Part shown: positions 3,681-17,515 of the stretch, piece by piece | Position numbering within the stretch: the first letter of the stretch is position 1 | How the letters are laid out: every line of letters begins with the position of its first letter | Made by a program: the position numbers and the translations under genes | Assembly (NCBI GenBank): GCA_049513715.1 | Contig: JBEKVV010000003.1 | Coordinates: 192,001-256,000 of the forward strand | Length of the DNA stretch: 64,000 nt | From: Candidatus Bathyarchaeia archaeon | Lineage (GTDB): Archaea; Thermoproteota; Bathyarchaeia; 40CM-2-53-6 | Reading direction: 5' to 3' | The notes under the pieces: model-generated | Told to the model about the DNA's origin: nothing | The model's database searches: none | What the model saw: only the letters and a program-made list of their open reading frames with translations

Positions 3681-3917
3681 GTCTGCGCATCTTCGATAAT
3701 GGAATAATAAACGTGAGAGTACTAGAATTTATCCCCCTCTGCTTCCACCCTGAAAGGTCCAATTCGCCTGACAGATTGAGTGATGCATCGCGCACTAAGA
3801 CGCTTTGATCTTCGAGATTACCGTCGTCGAGTACCAGAGCCTCACATGACAAGAGCTGAAAACAGACCTATCCGGTTAGGTTTCTTCTTAAATCTCATAA
3901 CGCTAGATACATCGGAG

Positions 3918-5720
3918 TTGACCTTGCTCGAGATCGAAGGTAGGACGAGCCTACATGAAATGACGCGCACTCTAGTGGACACTGCGACGGGTAGGGTGAA
4001 AGCGGACCTCGTTATCCGTAATGCATTATTAGTGAACGTGAATACGGGAGAGATTCTCGAGAAGCAGGAAGTGGCTGTCAAGAAGGACCGCATTGCCCTC
4101 GTAGGTGACACTAGAGGAGCAATTGGACCTGAAACTCAGGTTATTGACGTCCGAGGAATGTATCTAGTTCCGGGTTTCATCGATGGCCATATGCACATTG
4201 AAAGCTCCATGGTCACCGCCACAGAGTTTGCGAAAGCAGTTCTCCCCCATGGGACGACCACAGCTTTCGTTGACCCCCATGAAATAACCAACGTGCTCGG
4301 CTTGGATGGTGTTCGATTCTTCCTGGAAGAATCGCGCGGCCTTCCATTGAAGGTACTAATCACATTTCCCTCTTGCGTTCCGGCGGCACCCGGTTTCGAG
4401 ACATCTGGAGCTTCTATAGGTCCAGCTGATGTGGAGGCTGCAATGAAGTGGAAGGGGGTTGTGGCGTTGGGGGAGATGATGAACTACCCCGGCGTACTCG
4501 CATCGGACAGCCAAGTTCATGGTGAGATCGCAGCCTCGCTCAAAGCAGGCCGCGTTGTGGAGGGGCACGCCGTGGACCTGTTGGACCAAAACCTAGCCGC
4601 GTACGCAGCCGCAGGCATCACGTCCTGCCACGAATCAACCAAGATGATTCAGGCAATGCAAAAGCTCCGGTTCGGGATGTACGCGATGCTTAGGGAGGCG
4701 TCGGCGTCGCATGATGTTGCCGACACCATTCGCGCTATAACCGAACAGAAACTGAACCCGAGGCATGTCTGCCTGGTGACCGATGATAGGGAGCCAGACT
4801 CCCTCTTACGAGAGGGCCACATAGATCATGTCATACGGAGAGCGATCGAAGAGGGTGTAGACCCTGTTACCGCTATTCAGATGGCTTCGCTGAATGTAGC
4901 TGAACATTACGAGTGCGCAAGGGAATTTGGCAGCATCGCTCCGGCAAGGTTCGCGGACATGGTGATTCTCAGCAAGCTGGAAACGGTTGAAGTTGACACG
5001 GTAATCGCCAACGGGCAACTAGTCAGCCGTGAAGGAAGACTCGTCGCCCACATTGCCCCACCGGTCTTCCCTGACTCAGCTCGACATTCCGTGCGGCTGA
5101 AACAACTCCCTACCGCGAACGACATATTGATTCGATCAAAAACCAATCAAGGTTCAGTGAGAGTTAGGGCGATTGGCGTCCAGCCTACCAGTATCTACAC
5201 GAAGAATGTTGAATCAGAGGTAACTGTCAAAGAAGGCAAAGCCCTTGCGAACGTAGATGAGGACATCCTAAAAATTGCAGTCTTCGAGCGGCACAAGGCT
5301 TCAGGAAATGTGGGGCTTGGCTTCGTCAAAGGTTTAGGCTTGAAGGAGGGAGCGGTGGCCTCGACGGTTGGCCATGACAGTCACAACCTCACTCTCGCTG
5401 GAGCCAATGACAGGGACATGCTTGCTGCGGCAAAAGTGCTGGTCGATATCGAGGGCGGAATGGCGGTGGTAAGAGAGGGGAAGGTGCTTGCACATGTTCC
5501 GTTACCTATCGCAGGCCTCATGTCAGACAAATCCGTAGAAGTTGTTTCAAATCAAGTCGTCGAACTAAAGAGAGCTTGGACAGACCTAGGTTCGACCCTT
5601 CCGTCACCGCACATAACCCTCGCCTTCACAACGCTATCGGTAATACCGGAACTCAGAATCACGGACAAAGGGCTTCTAGATACTGTTCACTTCAAGTTCG
5701 TGAGCCCACTAATCGAGTAG
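3918..5720 (+). CDS. ade: Adenine deaminase
   Basis: PGFIDGHMHIES, HGTTT..DPHEI, GEMMN, GHDSHN motifs; start is uncertain (TTG 3918 or ATG 3960). Confidence 0.92.
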   Translation: MTLLEIEGRTSLHEMTRTLVDTATGRVKADLVIRNALLVNVNTGEILEKQEVAVKKDRIALVGDTRGAIGPETQVIDVRGMYLVPGFIDGHMHIESSMVTATEFAKAVLPHGTTTAFVDPHEITNVLGLDGVRFFLEESRGLPLKVLITFPSCVPAAPGFETSGASIGPADVEAAMKWKGVVALGEMMNYPGVLASDSQVHGEIAASLKAGRVVEGHAVDLLDQNLAAYAAAGITSCHESTKMIQAMQKLRFGMYAMLREASASHDVADTIRAITEQKLNPRHVCLVTDDREPDSLLREGHIDHVIRRAIEEGVDPVTAIQMASLNVAEHYECAREFGSIAPARFADMVILSKLETVEVDTVIANGQLVSREGRLVAHIAPPVFPDSARHSVRLKQLPTANDILIRSKTNQGSVRVRAIGVQPTSIYTKNVESEVTVKEGKALANVDEDILKIAVFERHKASGNVGLGFVKGLGLKEGAVASTVGHDSHNLTLAGANDRDMLAAAKVLVDIEGGMAVVREGKVLAHVPLPIAGLMSDKSVEVVSNQVVELKRAWTDLGSTLPSPHITLAFTTLSVIPELRITDKGLLDTVHFKFVSPLIE

Positions 5721-5739
5721 ACCCAAACGGAAACCACTA

Positions 5740-6741
5740 CTACTTTGGTTCGAAAGTGTCTATCATGGCGTGAACGTCATCTGCGAGAGGATACAGAATA
5801 GGACATGTGCAGCCCGTGTTGCAGTATTCCTCGACCTTCTTGATGCAGTCGTCCGCTGTTCCACTTGCTGTAATCAATTGAACGAGCTTGTCGTCAACAA
5901 GCCTTTTCGCTTTTTCTAATCCTCCCGGTTTGGCTGGCCAGCCACCCAAGGCTTGCTTTACTTCCTCAATGAGGCTTTCTTTGACTCCGCTTGCTTTGGC
6001 GATGTGGGGTTGCTGTCCCAAGTATTGTGCGACCAGCGGGCGAGCACTATCCAACGCTCTGTCCACATCTTCGTCAAGTGAGCAAACGATAAGTTGCGGC
6101 CTATCAAGACCCTGCCATTTTCTGCCGCCTTTCTCAGCGCCTTGTTTAAGGTACTCTACGGCCTTGCGGTTATACTCCGGCGAGACAAGGTAATTCAGTA
6201 GAACGCCGTCAGCGATCTCGCCTGTGAGAACCATCATGTCCCAACCTGTTGCCCCAATGTAGATTGGGATAGGCCTCGGAGTAGACGGGTCACCATAAAC
6301 AACATCAAGCCGTATATCGCGAACATTCACGAATTCGCCTTCAAACGTCACGTTCTCCATCCTGAACAATCTTTGAAGAACCGTCACGTACTCACGCATT
6401 GCCTTCAAAGGTTTCTTGCGTTCGATTCCAACCTTCCACGCGAGCGGGTCCCACCACGCACCCACCCCGAGCAAACCGCGCCCATCAGACAGGTCGTCGA
6501 GCGTAAGGAAAGTTGCCGCCGTCAGAGCCACGTTCCGGGTCCAATTATTGATCACCCCCGTTCCAAGTTTGATTTTCTCAGTAACAGCCGCTATTGCGGC
6601 TAGCGGAGTGATCGCGTCACGCGCAAGCCGCGATTCCGCATGCCACACAGCCTCAAACCCCTTCTTCTCAGCGTACTGTGCCAGCGTCAACTCTTCGCGG
6701 AGCCGATGCTTATCTTGCAGGTAGAGGGCAACTCGATTCAA
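5740..6741 (-). CDS. LLM-class flavin/F420-dependent oxidoreductase (Mer-like)
   Basis: [44 protein letters not shown]; start moved to TTG 6741. Confidence 0.85.
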
Positions 6742-6790
6742 ATGAAGCGCCAGTAAGAATCTACCAAAGCACCCTGCAATTAGCTCTTGC

Positions 6791-6807
6791 TGGCACTCGA
6801 TGTGCCA
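6791..6807. promoter_or_regulatory. Inverted repeat TGGCAC-N5-GTGCCA in the divergent LLM/xdh intergenic region; candidate operator
   Basis: Perfect 6-bp arms; related site CTGCAC-N5-GTGACT at 6854-6870. Confidence 0.35.
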
Positions 6808-6932
6808 AATCAACGCGGCACTTTCTATCAATTGGGTTATGCGCAGAGAGATCCTGCACTCGCAGTGACTAAGGAGGAAGGTTAAGATACTTCAAAACGA
6901 TTCGCGATTAGAACACCGCCGGGGAATTATCA

Positions 6933-7409
6933 ATGCGAGTGGAGCGTGCAATCAGTTTCAAGTTGAATGGCAAACATATGACGGTCAAATGCCCACCCGC
7001 GTACACACTTCTCGAGGTTCTCCGAGAGCAACTCCAAGTGACAGGGCCAAAGGAAGACTGCGCTAAGGGGGAATGCGGAGCCTGCACAGTCCTCATGAAT
7101 GGCCAACCTGTATGCTCCTGCTTGGTCCTAGTTTCACAGACGCAGGGCGCTGACATCATCACCTCGGAGGGGTTGGTGAAAGACGGAAAACCGAACCCTG
7201 TCCAAGAAGCATTTGTCGAGGAAGGCGCTGTTCAATGTGGCCATTGTATTCCCGGCATGATAGTTTCTGCATCCGCTTTACTAATGCGAAACCCAGAACC
7301 GTCCCCAGCCGAAATAAGGACCGCTCTCGGCGGAAACCTCTGCAGGTGCACAGGTTATACGAAAATCATCGCTGCAGTTCAGAAAGCTGCGAAGAACTGG
7401 AACAGGTGA
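6933..7409 (+). CDS. Xanthine dehydrogenase family 2x[2Fe-2S] subunit (set 1)
   Basis: CAKGECGAC...C and QCGHC...CRC cysteine motifs. Confidence 0.92.
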   Translation: MRVERAISFKLNGKHMTVKCPPAYTLLEVLREQLQVTGPKEDCAKGECGACTVLMNGQPVCSCLVLVSQTQGADIITSEGLVKDGKPNPVQEAFVEEGAVQCGHCIPGMIVSASALLMRNPEPSPAEIRTALGGNLCRCTGYTKIIAAVQKAAKNWNR

Positions 7410-7414
7410 ATTCT

Positions 7415-8299
7415 ATGATGCGGTCCGAAATTGACGTTCTGTCACCCCGGACCCTGGACGAGGCACTCGACCTGTTGGGACAGAAACAAACTCAGTTGAA
7501 AATTGTCGCGGGAGGTTCGGACGTGATAGTCCAGCTAAGGGACGGCGTCATCAAAACAAACAGGCTTCTAAGCATTCTGGGGTTGAAGGAGCTTCGATTC
7601 ATCAAGCAAACCAACGGAAGCATACACATCGGTTCGCTGGCCACATACAGTGACATTACCACTTCAACGCTGACACGAACTCACGCGTGGGTCCTTGTTG
7701 AGGCAGCTAAACAGATTGGCGCAATACAACTGCAAAATACCGCAACGATAGGAGGAAATCTGGGTAACGCATCCCCAGCTGGAGACAGCCTACCGCCCCT
7801 TTACGCGCTAGACGCAGTTGTGGTGACACGGAGCAAGTCTGGTCAACGAGAAATCCCAATTGAAGACTACTTCACCGGTTACCGTAAGACCATGCTGAGA
7901 CCCGACGAGCTGATTCAGGAAATTCACTTTCCTCAACTTGGCACGAGCGACCGAGGCCGGTACCTGAAGCTTGGGCTGCGGGAAGCGAACGCTATCTCAA
8001 TCGTAGATGCCGCTGTAGTATTAAGGGATGGAAAACCCGATGGCTCATACGCCGAAGCACGAGTCGCACTAGGAGCTGTGGCACCCACAATTGTGCGAGC
8101 GCGAGGATGCGAGAAAGAGTTAACGAACAGAGTTCTGACTGCAGAGAACATTCGTGAAGCAGCATCTCTCGCGGCGAATGACGCCAAACCCATTGACGAC
8201 ATTAGGGCTTCAGCTGCTTACAGGAAGGAGGTTGTTGTTTCACTCGTTTACCAAGCGCTCTATGAGTCGCTGTTCGGAAGTGCAGGGAAAAATGAGTAA
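7415..8299 (+). CDS. Xanthine dehydrogenase family FAD-binding subunit (set 1)
   Basis: AGGSD, ATIGGNLGNASPAGD, PIDDIRASAAYR; start is GTG 7406 or ATG 7415. Confidence 0.92.
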   Translation: MMRSEIDVLSPRTLDEALDLLGQKQTQLKIVAGGSDVIVQLRDGVIKTNRLLSILGLKELRFIKQTNGSIHIGSLATYSDITTSTLTRTHAWVLVEAAKQIGAIQLQNTATIGGNLGNASPAGDSLPPLYALDAVVVTRSKSGQREIPIEDYFTGYRKTMLRPDELIQEIHFPQLGTSDRGRYLKLGLREANAISIVDAAVVLRDGKPDGSYAEARVALGAVAPTIVRARGCEKELTNRVLTAENIREAASLAANDAKPIDDIRASAAYRKEVVVSLVYQALYESLFGSAGKNE

Positions 8300-8531
8300 T
8301 CCTGTGAAGGTCAAGGTCAAGATCTTCGGCGCTCCCTCGTTAGCACTGGAAAGCAGAGAAGTGACACTTGAACTCAAAGAAAACGCGACAACCGACGACC
8401 TACTGAAATCCATTTCCGTCGAAGACAAGGATTACTTGTACGTCGTCCGCGGGGGCATCAGGCTCAACCGGTCCACCAAACTGAACGATGGAGACGAAGT
8501 CCTGGTTGTGCCGCCGATTGCCGGAGGATGA
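8292..8531 (+). CDS. MoaD/ThiS/SAMP ubiquitin-like sulfur carrier
   Basis: 79 aa; VKVKIFG start and LNDGDEVLVVPPIAGG C-terminus ending in GG. Confidence 0.9.
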   Translation: MSNPVKVKVKIFGAPSLALESREVTLELKENATTDDLLKSISVEDKDYLYVVRGGIRLNRSTKLNDGDEVLVVPPIAGG

Positions 8532-8535
8532 TCAA

Positions 8536-10857
8536 ATGACCGAAACCGTTGCCAAACAAGAAGAACTCAGATGGGTAGGGAAATCAGTCGCCAGAAAAGA
8601 TGGCCCCGGCAAGGCAACTGGAGAGACCAAGTTCTTCTCTGATATGAATCTGCCAAACATGCTCTGGGCCAGAGTGACGCGCAGCAAACACCCCCACGCA
8701 CTAATCAAAAGGATCGACACAAGCAAAGCAGAGGCCTTCCCTGGAGTCGTCGCAGTCCTCACACACAAAGACATCCCTGGGCAGAACTGTTTTGGCATCG
8801 TCACACCAGACCAACCCGTCCTATGCTACGACAAAGTAAGATACCTCGGCGATGCGGTCGCGGTGGTGGCCGCCGAAAGCATAGAGGCAGCTGAAACAGC
8901 AGCACGACTCGTCGAAGTCGAATACGAACCCCTCCCGACAGTTACGGACCCAGAAAAAGCAATGAAAACAGGCGCGTCGAAGGTTCACGAGAACGGAAAC
9001 GTCCTGAGGCATGAACACGTCAGGGTTGGCGATGTGGAGAAAGCGTTCCAGCAGGCAGCGATCGTCGTTGAGAACACTTTCCGTACCGGCAGGCAGATGC
9101 ACATGTTCCTTGAAACCGAAGCCGGCATTGGGATGCTGGATGAGGAAGGCAACTTGGTTCTCTATGTTGGAGGGCAGTCCCCTTACCGAGACCAAATGCA
9201 AGTCTCGCGAGCCCTCGGCATCCGCCCCGAAAAGGTCCGCGTGATATCGACACCTGTAGGCGGGGCATTCGGAGGAAAAGAAGAAAACACCGTCCAAATC
9301 CACCTCGCCCTGCTCGCAATGAAAACGAAACGGCCAGTGAAGATGGTTTGGACACGGGAGGAATCGGGCGTGGCGGGGATGAAACGCCACCCCATGGTAG
9401 TTACTATGCGAACCGCGGCCAGCAAGGAAGGAACGATTCTAGCAAACAAAGTTCGAATAGTGGCTGATACTGGCGCGTACGCCTCGCTGGGACCGACAGT
9501 GCTCGACGTCGCCGTCGAAAACTCCTGTGGGCCATACAGAATCCAAAACATCGACATAGAGGCTTACTTGGTGTACACGAACAACGGCGTCGCAGGAGCC
9601 TTCCGAGGGTTCGGCGCCCCCCAAGTCAACTTTGCTCTAGAAACAAACCTAGACATCATCGCGGAGAAACTGCGCATTGATCGACTCGAAATTCGAAAGA
9701 AGAACGCACTTCGCGAAGGCGACACCGGCCCCTTCGGTTACAAGATTCAGGGAAGCATCGGAATACGCGAAACACTCCTGAAGGCCGAAAAATCAGAGAT
9801 CTGGAAGAACCGCAGGAAATACCGGTCGTCCAGTTCAACCCCATGGTTGAAGAGGGGCGTCGGAATCACGGCAGCAGTCAAAGGATTCGGTTTCGGCGCG
9901 CTTCCCGATTTTGCTGCTGCATCGATTCAAATTACTCCAACCGGTAAGTTTGTTGTCGGAGTAAGTTGTCCAGAAATTGGTCAAGGAGCTATCACTGCGT
10001 ATTCGCAGATTGCAGCTGAAGCACTGCAATGTGACATTGGAGACGTCTACATCGCATCTGCCGACTCCCAGTTGGCACCGGACACTGGAACGTCTTCGGC
10101 TTCGATGGCCTTGGTCCGAGGCGGGAACGCCATTCTTGCAACGGCACCCAAGATGAAGGAACTGCTACTTGACACGGCGGCGACAATCACAGGTCAATCG
10201 AAGGAAACACTATCCCTAAAGAACACCGGGGTCGTCTCGCGGAAAAAAGGAAAAATCCTGAGCTACGGCGAGCTTGCCCAATACCTCCAAGAGACCAACG
10301 CGGAAACCAAGGTCATTGCTGGATTCAATGTCCCCAGAGTCGACAAGCCAGTTGAGGGAAGCATTGAGATTCCACATTGGTCCTACATGTACGCCAGCGC
10401 AGTATCACTGGTCGAAGTTAACACATTAACCGGCGGTGTGAAGGTCCTGAAGTTTTTCCTATCTACTGATTGCGGGAAAATCATCAACCCACAATCATAC
10501 ACCGGCCAGTGCGAGGGCGCCATCGTACAAGGGTTAGGGTTTGCGTTGACCGAGGACACTCAAATCGAAGACGGCATCGTCAAAACGAACAACTTCACGA
10601 CATACATAATCCCCTCAATCAGTGATGTGCCCGAAATTCAAGTGGACCCTGTTGAAACCTATGAGAAGATAGGGCCTTTCGGGGCGAAAGGGCTTGGGGA
10701 AATCGGCATCATACCCGTAGGTTCAGCTGTAGCCAGCGCAATCTACGACGCCACAGGTGCGCGCGTATTCATCCTCCCTGCGACTCCCGAACGTGTCTTC
10801 AGAGCTTTGCGAGAGAGGAATGGGTTGGGTAGCAATGGTGGCAAAGGTAAGGGTTAG
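8536..10857 (+). CDS. Xanthine dehydrogenase family molybdopterin-binding subunit (set 1)
   Basis: VGGAFGGK, GAFRGFG, EIGQG, GQCEG, AKGLGE motifs. Confidence 0.93.
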   Translation: MTETVAKQEELRWVGKSVARKDGPGKATGETKFFSDMNLPNMLWARVTRSKHPHALIKRIDTSKAEAFPGVVAVLTHKDIPGQNCFGIVTPDQPVLCYDKVRYLGDAVAVVAAESIEAAETAARLVEVEYEPLPTVTDPEKAMKTGASKVHENGNVLRHEHVRVGDVEKAFQQAAIVVENTFRTGRQMHMFLETEAGIGMLDEEGNLVLYVGGQSPYRDQMQVSRALGIRPEKVRVISTPVGGAFGGKEENTVQIHLALLAMKTKRPVKMVWTREESGVAGMKRHPMVVTMRTAASKEGTILANKVRIVADTGAYASLGPTVLDVAVENSCGPYRIQNIDIEAYLVYTNNGVAGAFRGFGAPQVNFALETNLDIIAEKLRIDRLEIRKKNALREGDTGPFGYKIQGSIGIRETLLKAEKSEIWKNRRKYRSSSSTPWLKRGVGITAAVKGFGFGALPDFAAASIQITPTGKFVVGVSCPEIGQGAITAYSQIAAEALQCDIGDVYIASADSQLAPDTGTSSASMALVRGGNAILATAPKMKELLLDTAATITGQSKETLSLKNTGVVSRKKGKILSYGELAQYLQETNAETKVIAGFNVPRVDKPVEGSIEIPHWSYMYASAVSLVEVNTLTGGVKVLKFFLSTDCGKIINPQSYTGQCEGAIVQGLGFALTEDTQIEDGIVKTNNFTTYIIPSISDVPEIQVDPVETYEKIGPFGAKGLGEIGIIPVGSAVASAIYDATGARVFILPATPERVFRALRERNGLGSNGGKGKG

Positions 10858-11110
10858 GCTGTTCCACGAGTTACTGCGGAGCGTTGGACGAAGCGAAATT
10901 GAACTCGAAGTCGACACACTGGCCGGCCTCGTTCAACAACTAATCAAAATGCACGCCACAGTCAAAGACGTGCTCTACGATGTCCACGGCGTCCTTCGAG
11001 GCAACATATTATTCTACGTGAACAGTAGGGTTCAGAATCCGCCTGACCTTTCACGGAAACTAAATGACGGGGACCTAATCCTATTAGTTCCACCAGCAGC
11101 CGGGGGCTGA
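10835..11110 (+). CDS. MoaD/ThiS/SAMP ubiquitin-like sulfur carrier (second copy)
   Basis: VRVRLF start, YVN, LNDGDLILLVPPAAGG C-terminus ending in GG. Confidence 0.9.
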   Translation: MVAKVRVRLFHELLRSVGRSEIELEVDTLAGLVQQLIKMHATVKDVLYDVHGVLRGNILFYVNSRVQNPPDLSRKLNDGDLILLVPPAAGG

Positions 11111-11116
11111 GAGCAA

Positions 11117-12004
11117 TTGCGCAGATTCGACATGTACGTTCCAGAGGACCTAGAAGACCTCCTGCAGTACCTGGACGAACATCAGACTGGCTTTCAGTTG
11201 ATTGCGAATGGAAGCGACCTGATCAATCGAATTCAGCGCAAGCAAATTAACCCTAAAACTCTTGTCGACATTTCCGGGCTATCCGAGTTCAACTATGTTC
11301 GAAAGGAAGGCAGCACGATAAAGATAGGAGCCCTAACGACCATCTCTGACCTCTTGTCATCTCCCGTTATAGACTCGCGGCATGAGGTCTTCAGAGAAGT
11401 TGCCGCAAGATTCGGTGGCCCCTCAATCATAAATGTGGCAACTGTTGGCGGCAACGTCTGTGCTGCATCATCCTCCGAGGACCTATTGCCGGTCTTCCTC
11501 GTTTTGGAGGCGAAAGTGAAACTTCGGAGCAAGCACGGCGAGCGTACCGTCACGCTCGAAGAGTTTCTGAAGGGAAAGAGGCTTACCGATCTTAGACCAA
11601 ACGAAATCCTTACCGAGGTTATGTTTGAAGAACTTGACGATAACTCGGCGTGCGCTTTCGAGAAGGTTGGAATGCGAAATTCATTGATAATTGCTTTCGT
11701 CAATTCTGCGGTACGTTTGACACTTGAAAAGGGGTCGAAGCGTGTCGTGGACATTCGGATCGCTTTCAACCGAGTGAACGGCAAAATCCCGCAGCGAGCT
11801 AGGAAGGTTGAAGAGAAGTTGCGGGGTGCGGCTCTAACCGAGGAGAACATCGCGGCCGCCGTCGCTTCGTTGAATAGTGAATTGAAACTTAGCTCCGATT
11901 TCAGGGCGTCCGGTGAATACCGCACAAATGTGGCTTGTGCGCTGTTCAAGCGCGCGCTGAACAGGTGTACTGAGAAACTAATTGGAGAGACCATAATTGT
12001 CTAA
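11117..12004 (+). CDS. Xanthine dehydrogenase family FAD-binding subunit (set 2)
   Basis: ANGSDL, ATVGGN, SDFRASGEYR. Confidence 0.9.
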   Translation: MRRFDMYVPEDLEDLLQYLDEHQTGFQLIANGSDLINRIQRKQINPKTLVDISGLSEFNYVRKEGSTIKIGALTTISDLLSSPVIDSRHEVFREVAARFGGPSIINVATVGGNVCAASSSEDLLPVFLVLEAKVKLRSKHGERTVTLEEFLKGKRLTDLRPNEILTEVMFEELDDNSACAFEKVGMRNSLIIAFVNSAVRLTLEKGSKRVVDIRIAFNRVNGKIPQRARKVEEKLRGAALTEENIAAAVASLNSELKLSSDFRASGEYRTNVACALFKRALNRCTEKLIGETIIV

Positions 12005-12470
12005 GCATTTGCTGAAACTCAATGTAAACGGGAAAGAACACGCGATGATGGTTGAATCCCATGAGCGGCTGTTGGATGTCCTGCGGAATCGGTTGGGGTT
12101 GAGGGGAACGAAAGAGGGGTGCAGCACCGGTGACTGCGGCATCTGCGCCGTACTGATGAATGGACGCTTGGTCAACTCCTGTCTGATCCTCGCCATTCAG
12201 GCACGCAACAAGCGAATTACAACCATCGAGGGCATTGGGACAGAGGAAAAACTGCATCCCATCCAGCGAGCCTTCATGAAATGGAACGCCTCTCAGTGCG
12301 GATTCTGTATACCGGCCATGATCCTCGCCGCCAAGGACCTGGTGGACAGGAACCCTGATCCCACTGAGGACGAGATTAGGAAGGCCACTAGTGGGATTCT
12401 GTGCAGATGCACGGGTTACGTCAAAATCGTCGAGGCTGTGAAAACCGCGGCCCAAGAGATGAAGAAGTGA
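11997..12470 (+). CDS. Xanthine dehydrogenase family 2x[2Fe-2S] subunit (set 2)
   Basis: GCSTGDCGIC...C and QCGFC...CRC. Confidence 0.92.
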   Translation: MSKHLLKLNVNGKEHAMMVESHERLLDVLRNRLGLRGTKEGCSTGDCGICAVLMNGRLVNSCLILAIQARNKRITTIEGIGTEEKLHPIQRAFMKWNASQCGFCIPAMILAAKDLVDRNPDPTEDEIRKATSGILCRCTGYVKIVEAVKTAAQEMKK

Positions 12471-12476
12471 GAACTC

Positions 12477-14792
12477 ATGGTTGAGCAAACAACCATCCAG
12501 AATCTTTCCAAGGGACGACAACTAGTAGTCGTCGGCAAGAGCGTTGAACGAGTCGACGCGGTCGATAAGGTTCTTGGGAAACCAATCTACACCATGGATA
12601 TCGTTCCTGAGAACGCCCTGCACTTGAAAGTGGTTCGGTCGAGTGTAGCGCACGCCCGGTTGAAGCGGGTCGATTTGTCTGGGGCGCGTGAATTCCCTGG
12701 CGTAGTGGCTGTGGTCACGGCTCAGGATATACCTGGAATAAACGAGTCGACGGCCCTGCTCCCGGACAAGCCATTGTTGGCGACCGATAGGGTGAGGTTT
12801 GTAGGGGAGCCGATCGCCGTAATCGCATCTTATGATCAATCAATTGCTGAGGAAGCGGTTGACTTGGTCAAGGTTGAGTATGAGCCGTTGCCCGCAGTGT
12901 ACTCACCAGTTGAAGCAATGAAAGCGAACGCTCCTAAAATCCACGAAGGGGGAAACGTTGCTAAACACATGAAGTTGCGCAAGGGCAATGTTGAAGACGG
13001 CTTCAACCAAGCGGACCTCATTGTTGCGGGCACCTATAATTCGCAATTCCAAGAACCCGTCCCTCTTGAACCTGAAGCAGGTTTTGTTATCCCCGAATCG
13101 GACGGCTCAGTTACGTGTGTTGGTTCCATACAAAGCCCATTTCATGTGCAAACTGGAATGGCCAAAATCCTTTCGCTACGGCCCGAGCAAGTGCGAGTGA
13201 TTCAGGCCGTCACGGGAGGAGCTTTCGGCCCGAAATCAGACGAGATTCCCCTTGACATTTTCGGCATGGCCGCACTAGTCGCCGTGAAGACAGGAAAGCC
13301 TGCGGCGTTGGCGTACACACGGGAGGAGTCCATGATCGGCCACACCAAACGCCACCCATTCATAATCAACTTGAAAGCAGGCGTGAAGAAGACCGGCAAG
13401 CTTACTGCTTGGGAAGCTGAAATGATCGCGGACACCGGTGCGTACGCTTCGCTCGGGCCGCTCGTCATTATTCGCGCGCTCTTCCACGCTACCGGACCAT
13501 ACGTGATCCCGCACGTGAAAACTGATTCCTATTGCGTATACACGAACAACACTATGGCAGGTTCATTTCGTGGCTTCGGCGGGCCACAAGCACATTTCGC
13601 AGCAGAATCACACATGGACGAGATTGCGAAAAAGCTCGGCATGGACCCAGTGGAACTACGCTTGTTGAACATTCTAAGGCCGGGGGAATTGATGGCTACA
13701 AGCCAAGTCGTTGATGAGGCCTGCGGCCTGGAGGAATGCGTGAATAGGGCTAGAGATGAATCCGGCTGGTACAAGAAGCGAGAGCAATTCAGCAAAATGC
13801 ATGGGACGATGAGGAAAGGCCTTGGCATCGCGATCATGTACCACGGCAACAGCCTAGGCCCGGAAGGTAGTGACTACGCCGCAGTGCACATGCATATCGA
13901 CAGAGACGGTACAGTGCACCTCAGAACCGGGCTCACAGAATACGGAACTGGTGCGACTTCCGGTTTGCTTCAGATTGCGGCAGAGGTCATGCACCTTCCG
14001 ATGAGTTACTTCAGGCTCGAACCACCCGACACTAAGTACTGCTCGGACACGGGACCGACGGTAGCCTCGCGGACCATCACTATCGGTGGGCGGGCTTCCC
14101 AAATGGTTTCTGGAAAACTCGACCGGAAACTCCGGGGGGTTGCAGCAGAGAAACTTCGCTGCAATGTTGACGAAGTAGAATCGAGCAACGGGGCCTATTT
14201 TGTGAACACTGACGCGAAACGTTCCGTGCCGTACCTCGACGTAGTCAAATGGGCCTACGAACATGGGGGAGCGCTCAAAGACGCTGGGACATTCACTGCT
14301 CCGAAATGTGAGTACGACCCGGAAACAAGCCAAGGAACCACCTACCTGCAGTACACATATGGTGCTGTCACCGCAGAGGTGGAAGTTGATACTGAAACTG
14401 GACGCGTGCAAGTCAACAAGATGGTGACCGCTTACGATGTCGGGAAGACCATCAACCCACTATCACTTGTAGGCCAGATTGAGGGTGGAACGGTGCAGGG
14501 CTTAGGTTACGGTTTGATGGAGGAGTTGGTTCACAAGAATGGTGTAGTCGTCAACCCCAACCTAGCTGACTACTACATACCCACATCTATGGACATACCC
14601 GAAATCAGAACCATAATCGTCGAATACCCCGGCCATCTCGGACCCTACGGGGCCAAGGCAATAGGCGAGCCACCAGTAGTCCTTCCGGCTGCAGCAATCG
14701 TAAACGCCATAGACAACGCAATCGGTGTCAGGCTGACGCAGATACCTGCAACCCCAGACAGAGTCCTCATGGCCATCAAGAACAAGGCTTGA
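12477..14792 (+). CDS. Xanthine dehydrogenase family molybdopterin-binding subunit (set 2)
   Basis: GGAFGPK, RALFH, SFRGFG, GQIEGG, AKAIGE motifs. Confidence 0.93.
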   Translation: MVEQTTIQNLSKGRQLVVVGKSVERVDAVDKVLGKPIYTMDIVPENALHLKVVRSSVAHARLKRVDLSGAREFPGVVAVVTAQDIPGINESTALLPDKPLLATDRVRFVGEPIAVIASYDQSIAEEAVDLVKVEYEPLPAVYSPVEAMKANAPKIHEGGNVAKHMKLRKGNVEDGFNQADLIVAGTYNSQFQEPVPLEPEAGFVIPESDGSVTCVGSIQSPFHVQTGMAKILSLRPEQVRVIQAVTGGAFGPKSDEIPLDIFGMAALVAVKTGKPAALAYTREESMIGHTKRHPFIINLKAGVKKTGKLTAWEAEMIADTGAYASLGPLVIIRALFHATGPYVIPHVKTDSYCVYTNNTMAGSFRGFGGPQAHFAAESHMDEIAKKLGMDPVELRLLNILRPGELMATSQVVDEACGLEECVNRARDESGWYKKREQFSKMHGTMRKGLGIAIMYHGNSLGPEGSDYAAVHMHIDRDGTVHLRTGLTEYGTGATSGLLQIAAEVMHLPMSYFRLEPPDTKYCSDTGPTVASRTITIGGRASQMVSGKLDRKLRGVAAEKLRCNVDEVESSNGAYFVNTDAKRSVPYLDVVKWAYEHGGALKDAGTFTAPKCEYDPETSQGTTYLQYTYGAVTAEVEVDTETGRVQVNKMVTAYDVGKTINPLSLVGQIEGGTVQGLGYGLMEELVHKNGVVVNPNLADYYIPTSMDIPEIRTIIVEYPGHLGPYGAKAIGEPPVVLPAAAIVNAIDNAIGVRLTQIPATPDRVLMAIKNKA

Positions 14793-14851
14793 AAAAATGA
14801 TTATATGGGCCCTGACCGCAGTCCCCTCCAAGGCAAAGGAGCCAACTTCGC

Positions 14852-15697
14852 ATGAGTAACATCTACCAAAAGATCAGCGAGTTGCTTCACAATCAGGAGA
14901 CCTTTGCCTTAGCGACCATTGTGAACTACAAAGGCTCAGTTCCCCGCCGAGTTGCCAAGATGATCGTCACCAAAGACCTCAAGACATACGGGACGATTGG
15001 CGGAGGTTGCGTCGAAGGCCAAGTAGCCGAAGAAGCAGCCCTTATGCTGCGCGAGGGAACTAGCGGTGTTGTTACAAAGTCATATGATCTGGTGGAAGAA
15101 GAATTCGGGGGAGTAGGCATGAGCTGCGGCGGCAAGATTGACGTGGCAGTGGAAATCGTTGAACCTGACCCCAGGCTTATTGTCGCAGGAAGCGGTCACT
15201 TGTCTTCTGCGATCGCTAGGCTTGGACGTGTGCTCGATTTTGACGTCATCGTAATCGACCCGATGGCGAAGAAGGAGAAGTTCCCTGAAGCTCGCGTCGT
15301 CATTTCAGATTTCGTGGAGAACAACCTACCTAACATCCCCACGTCGACGAACACGTACATTGTGATTGTTACAAGGCATAAGGACGACTTGCCAGCCTTG
15401 AGAGCCGCCCTCAAAACCAAAGCCACCTACATTGGGTTAATCGGAAGCCGGCGAAGAGTTCTGCAGGGATTCCGGATTCTCAACAAAGAAGGTTACAGCG
15501 AGCAGGAGCTCAGCAGGGTGAATGCTCCCATTGGGTTGGACATCGGCGCCGAAACGCCTGACGAGATAGCGGTCAGCATCATGGCTGAAATAATCCAGCG
15601 CCGCAGGCTGGGGGCAAGCAAGCCTGCAGAGCCCATGAAGGTCGAATTGGCATCATTGAAGTCAATTCCGCAAGATGCGGAGACTCCCAAACAGTAG
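14852..15697 (+). CDS. xdhC: XdhC/CoxF family Moco-insertion accessory protein
   Basis: GSVPR, GTIGGGCVE, CGG, YIGLIGSRR, PIGLDIGAETPDEIAVSI. Confidence 0.9.
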   Translation: MSNIYQKISELLHNQETFALATIVNYKGSVPRRVAKMIVTKDLKTYGTIGGGCVEGQVAEEAALMLREGTSGVVTKSYDLVEEEFGGVGMSCGGKIDVAVEIVEPDPRLIVAGSGHLSSAIARLGRVLDFDVIVIDPMAKKEKFPEARVVISDFVENNLPNIPTSTNTYIVIVTRHKDDLPALRAALKTKATYIGLIGSRRRVLQGFRILNKEGYSEQELSRVNAPIGLDIGAETPDEIAVSIMAEIIQRRRLGASKPAEPMKVELASLKSIPQDAETPKQ

Positions 15698-16237: not shown

Positions 16238-16612
16238 ATGTCATTGGGAGACCTGCAAGCAGACATCCTAGGTGCCCTGCAGAGACTAAGGAAGGCAACC
16301 GCCAGGGACATTATGGAGGAAGTGGGGGGCGAGAAGCATTTGGCGTACACAACAGTGAGCACAGTCCTAGACCGATTGCACCGAAAAGGGCTGGTCAGAA
16401 GGACTAGAGTCAAAGGAAGAGGGGGAGCCAAATATCTCTACTCGTACGCAGCCCCCATCGGTATGCGCTCCAACCTAGTAGATAGGGCGGTAGCCCAGCT
16501 GGTTAACGCCTTCGGCCCGTCCATCGTTCCAACAATTTACGATAGCCTAGAGCAAATATCAAAGGAAGATGTCAGTGAATTAAAGAGGAAGGTAGCAAGA
16601 GCACGAAGGTAG
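16238..16612 (+). CDS. BlaI/MecI/CopY family transcriptional repressor
   Basis: LAYTTVSTVLDRLHRKGLVRR winged-HTH signature. Confidence 0.9.
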   Translation: MSLGDLQADILGALQRLRKATARDIMEEVGGEKHLAYTTVSTVLDRLHRKGLVRRTRVKGRGGAKYLYSYAAPIGMRSNLVDRAVAQLVNAFGPSIVPTIYDSLEQISKEDVSELKRKVARARR

Positions 16613-16618
16613 CCAAGC

Positions 16619-17515
16619 TTGAGCTTAACTGCGATTTACGGCGCCTACTTTAGCGACTTTGGTACACTCGCTGCCCTAGCGCTACCACTGCTCACACTTG
16701 CGATTCTGTTTGTGCTGTTCAAGAGAACAAGTAGCCCTAGGGCGCGGTCTTGGGACCTTGGCCTCATGCTTATCTCTTCCATTTTCCTGTGGGTCTTCAT
16801 CGCCGTTAGCCTAATCCTCTGTTTCGCTTTCGCAGAAACATACGAGTACCAAATAGCAGCAGGCATACGCGCCGTTTTTGGAAGAGCCTTGCTGGTCGGA
16901 ATCGTCGCGGCTCTCCCCTTCTCGTTTCTGTTGCGTGAGATCTCTCCCCAGATCACTTTGGCAAGAGTAAAACGCCTAACAATTCCAGAGAAAGAGATTG
17001 CGAATTCCTTTGATGTTCTCCGCAGAAGAATGGGGATTACATCCGCTGAGTTGCGGCTCTCTAAATCCCGCGCCCCCGTTTCTTTCGCCATTCAGACTGA
17101 CAAGCCGATCGTCGTGATGTCTGAAAGTCTCCTCTCCTTGCTGAAGGATGATGAGATTGAGGCGGTGATGGCTCATGAATTGGCGCACATCAGAAACTCG
17201 GATACTACCCTCAAAGCGTTAGTTACCGCGTACAAGACTGCGCTACCTCACGATCCAATAATCCGCCTGGTGGAAGCCGCATTTCATAGGGAAAGAGAGA
17301 TGGTGGCTGACGAGACAGCTGCCGAAATCACAAAGAAACCGTTGTCGCTTGCATCAGCCTTGTTGAAAATCTATGAGGCCTTCCCCAAGAGCAACCTTCC
17401 GTCTTTGGGAACATTGTCGATTCTCGGAGCTGGGTCAACGTTGATGAGCCGCCACCCGCCAATCCGCCACCGAATTAGCCACCTTATCAATTTGGCAGAC
17501 ATCCACCATCAGTAA
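16619..17515 (+). CDS. M56/M48 membrane zinc metallopeptidase (BlaR1-like, no penicillin-binding domain)
   Basis: 3 N-terminal TMs, AVMAHELAHI, REMVAD, HPP..R. Confidence 0.85.
   Translation: MSLTAIYGAYFSDFGTLAALALPLLTLAILFVLFKRTSSPRARSWDLGLMLISSIFLWVFIAVSLILCFAFAETYEYQIAAGIRAVFGRALLVGIVAALPFSFLLREISPQITLARVKRLTIPEKEIANSFDVLRRRMGITSAELRLSKSRAPVSFAIQTDKPIVVMSESLLSLLKDDEIEAVMAHELAHIRNSDTTLKALVTAYKTALPHDPIIRLVEAAFHREREMVADETAAEITKKPLSLASALLKIYEAFPKSNLPSLGTLSILGAGSTLMSRHPPIRHRISHLINLADIHHQ

Follow-up and report, generated by a model that had tools for sequence, protein, structure and literature searches.

Ubiquitin-like genes interleaved with a double xanthine dehydrogenase-family operon of Bathyarchaeia may encode enzyme-dedicated sulfur carriers

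Results

A nine-gene operon encodes two molybdenum hydroxylases and two ubiquitin-like proteins

We analysed a 64,000-nucleotide stretch of DNA (hereafter the window) from a Candidatus Bathyarchaeia archaeon (assembly GCA_049513715.1, contig JBEKVV010000003.1, positions 192,001 to 256,000), in which nine genes, all on the + strand, encode two enzymes of the xanthine dehydrogenase (XDH) family together with two small ubiquitin-like proteins (Ubls), the putative sulfur carriers S1 and S2. The operon opens with FeS1 (6933-7409), the two-[2Fe-2S] small subunit of enzyme 1 (Pfam Fer2 and Fer2_2), and FAD1 (7415-8299), its flavoprotein subunit (Pfam FAD_binding_5 and CO_deh_flav_C). These are followed by S1 (8292-8531, 79 aa), the 773-residue molybdopterin-binding subunit Mo1 (8536-10857) and S2 (10835-11110, 91 aa). 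Enzyme 2 comes next, with the flavoprotein subunit FAD2 (11117-12004) and the two-[2Fe-2S] subunit FeS2 (11997-12470), both recognised by Pfam, and the 771-residue molybdopterin-binding subunit Mo2 (12477-14792). The last gene encodes an XdhC-family cofactor chaperone (14852-15697). As read from the sequence, neighbouring genes overlap by 8-23 nt or stand 4-6 nt apart, except that 59 nt precede xdhC. A scan for bacterial-type promoters and terminators gave chance-level counts (7 vs 5.1; 10 vs 11). The order FeS1-FAD1-S1-Mo1-S2-FAD2-FeS2-Mo2-xdhC agrees with a preliminary description of the locus, which had also rightly noted that both genes flanking Mo1 end in Gly-Gly (PPIAGG in S1 and PPAAGG in S2, each followed by the stop codon) and that there is one carrier per enzyme set, two carriers for two hydroxylases.

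Both small proteins pass the Pfam ThiS model (PF02597, cut-off 22.5 bits), S1 with 36.8 bits and S2 with 34.1 bits. They are 35% identical and differ in length class, S1 being of the short ThiS/MoaD type and S2 of the MoaD/SAMP1 type with a family-invariant RLFH(E)L. With TIGR01687 (archaeal MoaD, cut-off 49.5) S2 passes at 50.8 and S1 fails at 30.1. With TIGR01682 (MoaD, 66.15) S1 scores 24.4 and S2 20.7, and a moeA-linked MoaD of the same genome is also below the cut-off at 43.2. The SAMP1 profile NF041918 gave 25 for S1 and 33.8 for S2 against a cut-off of 60, so that the label "SAMP" of the preliminary description is a loose one. An AlphaFold model of S1 has a beta-grasp fold (pLDDT 88.7) without a helix at the position of MoaD helix 1; its top structural match is mycobacterial MoaD (6jbz_B), and it also matches ubiquitin and SAMP1 chains. 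In alignments of near-full-length matches, Gly-Gly is invariant in 49/49 S1 and 49/49 S2 sequences. The median ratio of nonsynonymous to synonymous substitutions (dN/dS), taken over unsaturated pairs from 49 sequences per family, is 0.096 for S1 (125 pairs), 0.125 for S2 (129 pairs) and 0.094 for Mo1 (88 pairs). S1 and S2 are thus under purifying selection like the Mo subunit (dN/dS of about 0.1) and are not chance open reading frames.

The carriers are conserved beside the hydroxylase genes

Close relatives are Bathyarchaeia. Among relatives with a Mo1 orthologue, S1 precedes Mo1 in 19/19 and S2 follows it in 18/19, the single miss being a cut contig; the linkage of carriers to XDH genes, proposed earlier for a neighbourhood survey, is therefore conserved. 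Among 401 genomes of the class, strong matches were confined to two genera, for S1 in 19/22 and 6/10 genomes and for S2 in 18/22 and 8/10. A search of metagenomes with S2 kept 80 loci, including the window's own contig and coming from related rather than independent genomes; Gly-Gly was present in 80/80, and an XDH subunit stood beside the carrier in 79/80. A carrier was present in none of 54 more distant loci (Mo identity 25-48%, mostly bacterial, many on short contigs), and a plasmid search with Mo2 returned 1292 matching records, with no MoaD gene in the two regions examined. Records labelled as bacteria (L046, L049, L053) contain the operon with a Mo1 73-78% identical to the archaeal one; they are probably mislabelled bins rather than cases of transfer. 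In the second genus, an MtrH-like methyltransferase gene was seen after Mo2 instead of xdhC (L052:13332-14264, a Pfam match; L054).

A third operon type, with the order Mo-carrier-FAD-FeS, occurs in six Bathyarchaeia genomes and in a seventh cut by a contig end, a count that is biased in that two of these genomes were found via the carrier. Its Mo subunit and Mo2 form one well-supported clade. Its carrier grouped with S2 with a support of 95, 93 and 71 in three trees, suggesting a co-inheritance that is likely, not firm. An orphan near-copy of this carrier (L194:5905-6222, genome G006) has no Mo enzyme gene within ~6 kb. In two families of another class, a divergent carrier occupies the same position between Mo and FAD genes, intact in five and broken by a deletion in one of six cases. 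In the broken copy (L322:5849-6073, genome G634) the deletion lies near the end of the gene, and the product lacks the last strand and Gly-Gly.

Carrier-less homologues are common outside these groups. No carrier was found within ~3-4 kb in 25 of 31 sampled clade members from other lineages. The eight closest Mo2 homologues of other classes (48-53% identity, GPKSDE motif kept) are all without one, as are 11/17 sampled third-type relatives, one more having the deletion-broken copy. Six carrier-less genomes that we checked encode 4-6 other ThiS proteins each, and those listed do not group with S2. Because 25/31 homologous loci lack it, the carrier appears to be accessory and losable rather than an obligate subunit, a role that the preliminary description had considered.

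The two hydroxylases probably act on purines or related compounds

Two complete sets of Mo-binding, FAD and 2x[2Fe-2S] subunits place both enzymes in the xanthine oxidase family. Mo1 contains the motifs RQMHMFLE, GGAFGGKEE, AFRGFG and AKGLGE(722). Its residues Q187, F356-G360 and E722, which we take to be the conserved Gln, the FRGFG motif and the catalytic Gly-Glu motif of the family, are invariant in 49 Mo1 rows. Mo2, ~38% identical to Mo1 orthologues, has the corresponding motifs (GGAFGPKSDE, IIRALFH, AKAIGEPP). Neither protein belongs to the strict xanthine dehydrogenase equivalogs (PucD, XdhA, XdhB): the best model of Mo1 is PucD, under its cut-off (Mo1 661.9, Mo2 555.2 vs 783.65), and both miss all named enzyme cut-offs.

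An adenine deaminase gene (3780-5720, + strand; TIGR01178 above cut-off) lies upstream of the operon and is often conserved there. Between the two, in divergent orientation, a luciferase-like, F420-type oxidoreductase gene (5740-6831, - strand) is often kept at 78-88% identity. Because these two genes are often found upstream, purine-type substrates are suggested, and both enzymes probably hydroxylate purines or related N-heterocycles. A selenium-dependent hydroxylase, or selenium carriage, was considered and rejected: a selenium ligand is unlikely because the genome has no SelD match over the cut-off (TIGR00476, best 83 vs 125). Just downstream of the operon, a pair of genes for a BlaI-like repressor and an M48/M56 peptidase (16238-17515) is often kept.

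Carriers occur in free, masked and fused forms

The Gly-Gly end is not always exposed. Among 26 genomes, 18 encode a free S1, six have it masked by 1-2 residues and two carry it fused to Mo1; in the second genus it is free in 0/6 genomes. S2 (n=27 loci) is free in 22, masked in four and frameshifted in one, and in some relatives it is fused to FAD2. Metagenome loci gave 73 free and 7 masked S2, and 34 free and 5 masked S1. A protein search revealed 16 clusters of S1-Mo1 fusions, 12 of them full length, joined in frame by linkers as short as three residues; PPxxGG is retained in 16/16, and the residues after Gly-Gly are variable. S2-FAD2 fusions form two clusters that retain Gly-Gly, each from one short contig. 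Because the carrier part of one of them has a nearly identical counterpart in a free 91-aa S2, this fusion may be a recent read-through or an assembly error. Each carrier fuses to its downstream neighbour, whichever gene that is. A 123-member cluster was not accepted as 123 fusions: among the 15 members listed, seven are full fusions, five are free S2 and three are Mo fragments.

A single-chain model of one natural S1-Mo1 fusion has a pTM of 0.86, with the Gly-Gly linker and one loop at pLDDT <50. Being one chain, without inter-domain error or control, this model bears neither way on docking; the low-pLDDT linker would suit a cleavable junction and is weak evidence for one. JAB/JAMM genes were found in 12/12 genomes tested, nine of them, from two genera, with masked or fused carriers. 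A strong CysO-type JAB match is present in 6/6 genomes of the second genus and missing from 2/3 masked genomes of the first. The genome studied here has three JAB matches, two with the E..H-x-H..S..D motifs. In Haloferax volcanii, JAMM1 cuts a SAMP1-MoaE fusion directly after Gly-Gly and requires both residues (PMC4443979), and the masked and fused forms described here fit a release by JAMM cleavage after Gly-Gly. The Ubl-subunit fusions recall the precursor fusions of ubiquitin, here in the metabolic context of a prokaryote. Two tandem two-domain ThiS proteins (P0028, P0034), which have one Gly-Gly inside the chain and another, masked one at its end, are polyubiquitin-precursor-like.

Cofactor and sulfur machinery is encoded elsewhere in the genome

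Profile searches were run on the whole genome, which is 99% complete. The preliminary description had noted the lack of moaE, E1, cysteine desulfurase and mocA genes from the window. Within it we indeed found no match to MoaE, ThiF, class-V aminotransferase or NTP_transf_3, and all four families have members elsewhere in the genome, so that their absence from the window means little. In total the genome has 12 ThiS, one MoaE, two ThiF, eight XDH-type Mo subunits, 10 AOR, three JAB, one MoaC and one XdhC, the last being the sole XdhC_C match, that of the operon. Neither carrier has an AOR gene as neighbour: the adjacent genes are of the XDH family, and 0/10 AOR matches fall in the window. One ThiF protein adjoins ThiI and is a MoeB-like E1 (197.7 bits on the UbaA model, cut-off 450). 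The other lies inside a eukaryote-like ubiquitin operon (L033:4245-8535; G000:C1 ~277-282 kb) with genes for a JAB protein, a ubiquitin ending in GG, an E2, a ubiquitin-E1 fusion and a zinc-ribbon protein. A SufS desulfurase scores above its cut-off and a MocA-like protein below (160.8 vs 186.45). MoaE retains the HR and KKEVPIWKKE motifs. As judged from these matches, nothing required for ordinary MoaD chemistry is missing from the genome.

MoaE tracks the operon, being present in 19/22 and 9/10 genomes of the two operon genera and in 2/22 of a sister genus without the operon. The MoaE of genera g1 and g14 is of a divergent type that co-occurs with the operon, scoring 72-98 bits on the Pfam model vs 125-139 for the typical form found in a few family members.

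Other MoaD-fold genes were also recorded. A second double XDH-family operon, with coxG (L029:5920-15384; G000:C3 ~393-402 kb), has a ThiS-fold gene ending in GGG 1.5 kb upstream, with a cyclase gene in between and a nucleoside-type ABC transporter nearby. Two related MoaD-fold genes without a Gly-Gly end (…YPWLGHEDF and …YPYAENF; L023:4618-4920 and 6911-7240, G000:C4 ~117.6 and 120 kb) lie to either side of an AOR gene, on the opposite strand, and a similar domain ends the two-domain protein P0072. Related ThiS-fold genes were seen at L027:5221-5652 and L030 ~5631-5855; the L027 gene has an N-terminal twin-arginine-like extension and lies beside an NrfD/ferredoxin cluster.

Discussion

Proposed enzyme-dedicated carriers for molybdopterin synthesis

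We regard it as an even call that S1 and S2 are enzyme-dedicated thiocarboxylate sulfur carriers for the molybdopterin synthesis of these hydroxylases. In this scheme the one MoeB/UbaA-like E1 would activate a carrier by adenylating its Gly-Gly end, which would then take up sulfur from the SufS-type desulfurase as a thiocarboxylate; the single MoaE would use this thiocarboxylate to make molybdopterin for the co-expressed enzyme. Completion and insertion of the cofactor would fall to the MocA-like enzyme and the general XdhC. For carriers that are masked or fused, cleavage behind Gly-Gly by a JAMM protease would come beforehand. We infer these chemical steps from the observed genes, fold, Gly-Gly ends, conservation and variants.

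Several observations weigh against this proposal. With 12 ThiS/MoaD matches already in the genome, one of them beside moeA genes, extra carriers are not obviously needed, and a carrier lies inside the gene set of 2/8 XDH-type Mo subunits only, the other six being without an adjacent one. S1 has lost the F-A-x-L-R (Leu-Arg) motif of helix 1 present in aligned MoaD/SAMP chains, and at a position that is Ala in aligned MoaD chains S2 carries an invariant His. Both families retain invariant surface residues of their own, a possible sign of a partner other than MoaE. Trees do not place the carriers: grouping of the carriers with ordinary MoaD gave p values of 0.55 and 0.74 in approximately unbiased (AU) tests, done after six long-branch rows had been removed, and no grouping was rejected. 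The grouping of the third-type carrier with S2 drops to 71 in one tree. The divergent carriers of the other class (L323, L324, L328, L333, L334) end in WPALDGG(V) or WPALNGGV, were missed by the Pfam ThiS search in three genomes and, for that of L323, gave no NCBIfam match at E 1e-10. Finally, JAMM genes are common in archaea, and their presence is for that reason weak support. The motif changes of S1 and S2 remain compatible with MoaE as a partner, since pterin synthesis in Thermococcus kodakarensis is still sustained by a ThiS-type Ubl whose fold is simpler (PMC11323500).

Possible donation of the terminal sulfur

An unlikely alternative is that the carriers provide the terminal Mo=S sulfido ligand from their thiocarboxylate, acting on cofactor that is bound to XdhC or to the apo Mo subunit and so taking the place of the NifS-persulfide step of Rhodobacter. 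Such a ligand defines the xanthine oxidase family (PMC13653126), each enzyme set has its carrier, and the same Mo-carrier-FAD position recurs in the related clade, in Bathyarchaeia and in another class. The family-specific invariant residues that differ from MoaD would suit this role. The two top desulfurase-like proteins of the genome score far under the cut-off of the NifS/IscS model, and the link of specific Ubls to apo-enzymes is stated to be unknown (PMC11323500). A fuller version, to which we give the same low credence, would have the carrier made with or fused to its enzyme, released by JAMM, thiocarboxylated and then sulfurating the cofactor on or near its own apo-enzyme, as the first ubiquitin-like terminal-sulfur donor. 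If true, this would add a third route of sulfuration to those of XdhC/NifS and the eukaryotic sulfurase, and it would account for the way in which one particular Ubl comes to serve one particular pterin enzyme.

The XdhC types do not follow the carriers. The XdhC at the operon end of relatives is either 70-76% or, in most, 33-42% identical to that of the window, and across both groups Mo2 stays 75-81% and S2 55-70% identical. The XdhC tree splits the two types deeply, a split that the Mo2 tree does not show, and genomes of the second genus have XdhC at a distance of several kb or beyond the examined stretch. A tight pairing of carrier and XdhC is made less likely by this swap under unchanged carriers; a loose one is not. 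With one XdhC for eight Mo subunits, it weakens the earlier suggestion that the carriers feed XdhC. The presence of a SufS desulfurase, SufS being the only one of these models to be passed, also speaks against the terminal-sulfur role, as do the 25/31 homologous loci whose enzymes presumably mature without an adjacent carrier. The main text of a 2026 review of the sulfido ligand contains none of MoaD, thiocarbox- or ubiquitin (PMC13653126). Moreover, MoaD genes also adjoin tungsten AOR genes, where the standing proposal is pterin synthesis.

Less likely roles as modifiers, redundant paralogues or subunits

It is improbable that the carriers act as SAMP-like covalent modifiers or removable folding tags, joined to the subunits or translated ahead of them, taken off by JAMM and controlling assembly, activity or turnover. 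Fusion to whichever gene lies downstream (16 S1-Mo1 and two S2-FAD2 clusters), with Gly-Gly always kept, and the lack of free S1 in the second genus would suit such a role. Conjugation of SAMP1 inhibits MoaE in a reversible manner (PMC4443979), and in T. kodakarensis each of the three Ubls forms conjugates (PMC11323500). However, free carriers are found in most genomes (S1 18/26, S2 22/27), the S2-FAD2 fusion with its near-identical free S2 may be a read-through or an assembly error, both proteins score below the SAMP1 model, and any sulfur carrier may form conjugates as a side activity.

Rather more doubtful is the view that S1 and S2 are ordinary redundant MoaD/SAMP paralogues of a general sulfur-carrier pool, placed in the operon for co-regulation alone and devoid of enzyme specificity. 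The T. kodakarensis Ubls are largely redundant (PMC11323500), a moeA-linked MoaD was found with that query in only 9/22 relatives, so that S1 and S2 may stand in for it, the orphan third-type carrier lies away from any Mo gene, and the trees do not reject a grouping with the moeA-linked MoaD. Nevertheless, nearly every copy retains two different carriers with separate sets of invariant residues, and S1 is more conserved across the genus (62-77% identity) than the moeA-linked MoaD (49-67%). The carriers are also set apart from this housekeeping protein by profile score: it scores 16 bits on the S1 profile and 9.6 on the S2 profile, and family members 126-158. An origin of S1 and S2 by local duplication was not rejected either (p-AU 0.70), despite their low identity and different length classes. 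A sister relation of S1 to the short AOR-linked carriers had a support of 89 in one tree and was gone in the next, and we do not claim it.

Least probable of all is a role as fourth, structural subunits docked on the hydroxylases: short-linker S1-Mo1 fusions, one-to-one gene dosage and a conservation near that of the Mo subunit would suit it, but the eight closest Mo2 homologues, 11/17 third-type relatives and all 54 distant loci are carrier-less, Gly-Gly is retained where a structural role would not need it, and AorD/AorE are reported as absent from purified AOR (PMC6365974).

Significance

According to PMC11323500 it is not known how a particular Ubl carrier is matched with its pterin enzyme, and the operon offers a compact test of this: two different carriers, two enzymes, one MoaE and one XdhC, with natural free, masked and fused variants and, as controls, natural homologues that lack a carrier. 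If MoaE is all that the carriers feed, the AOR-linked arrangement is extended to the xanthine oxidase family, which may help the heterologous production of archaeal hydroxylases; if they supply Mo=S, a new maturation route is at hand. In keeping with the view that the arrangement is undescribed, a literature search with most subscription journals outside its coverage found no publication that describes a linkage of Ubl genes with genes of the XDH family. The main text of PMC1779556 contains neither "dehydrogenase" nor "Xdh", that of PMC2948915 neither "xanthine" nor "dehydrogenase" (two of its three supplement files are free of XDH terms), and PMC1949818 mentions xanthine only in a reference. 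A survey of archaeal fusions lists MoaD-MoaE and MoaD-MoeB fusions, with "xanthine" absent from its main text (PMC11237513).

Comparison with known systems

The top family and structure matches of Mo1 and Mo2 are Bacillus PucD, Eubacterium barkeri nicotinate dehydrogenase (3HRD) and 4-hydroxybenzoyl-CoA reductase (1RM6), enzymes which share the three-subunit architecture of the Mo1 and Mo2 sets. Unlike PucD-type enzymes, Mo1 and Mo2 miss every named equivalog cut-off (best 662 vs 784 bits).

The accepted sulfuration route, that of XdhC and NifS4 in Rhodobacter capsulatus (PMC10609526; PMC13653126), resembles the present system in having XdhC at the end of a hydroxylase operon and a cysteine desulfurase, here SufS, in the genome. 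As described in these papers, it proceeds through a persulfide and no ubiquitin-like carrier, whereas the XdhC of the present operon is the only one in its genome, can be exchanged and does not go along with the carriers.

With the SAMP1-MoaE/JAMM1 system of H. volcanii (PMC4443979), S1 and S2 share the fold, the Gly-Gly end, fusion through Gly-Gly to the downstream protein and the presence of JAMM genes. In contrast to it, their fusion partner is a Mo or FAD subunit, moaE is unlinked, and cleavage is a prediction.

The closest parallel is given by MoaD genes strictly adjacent to tungsten AOR genes (Iyer, Burroughs and Aravind 2006, PMC1779556; Makarova and Koonin 2010, PMC2948915), including AorD/AorE (PMC6365974) and T. 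kodakarensis UblB/UblC, where one Ubl is specific for one tungsten enzyme (PMC11323500). In both cases a Gly-Gly-ended MoaD-fold gene lies beside a pterin enzyme, apart from the housekeeping genes, and the AOR-linked proteins have been proposed to serve the cofactor synthesis of the neighbouring enzyme. The Bathyarchaeia operon differs in that the partner is a Mo-FAD-FeS enzyme belonging to the xanthine oxidase family, with a terminal sulfido ligand, that two carriers accompany two enzymes, and that masked and fused forms occur. It is a real and conserved case, apparently not described before, in which the theme of enzyme-linked MoaD genes reaches the xanthine oxidase family.

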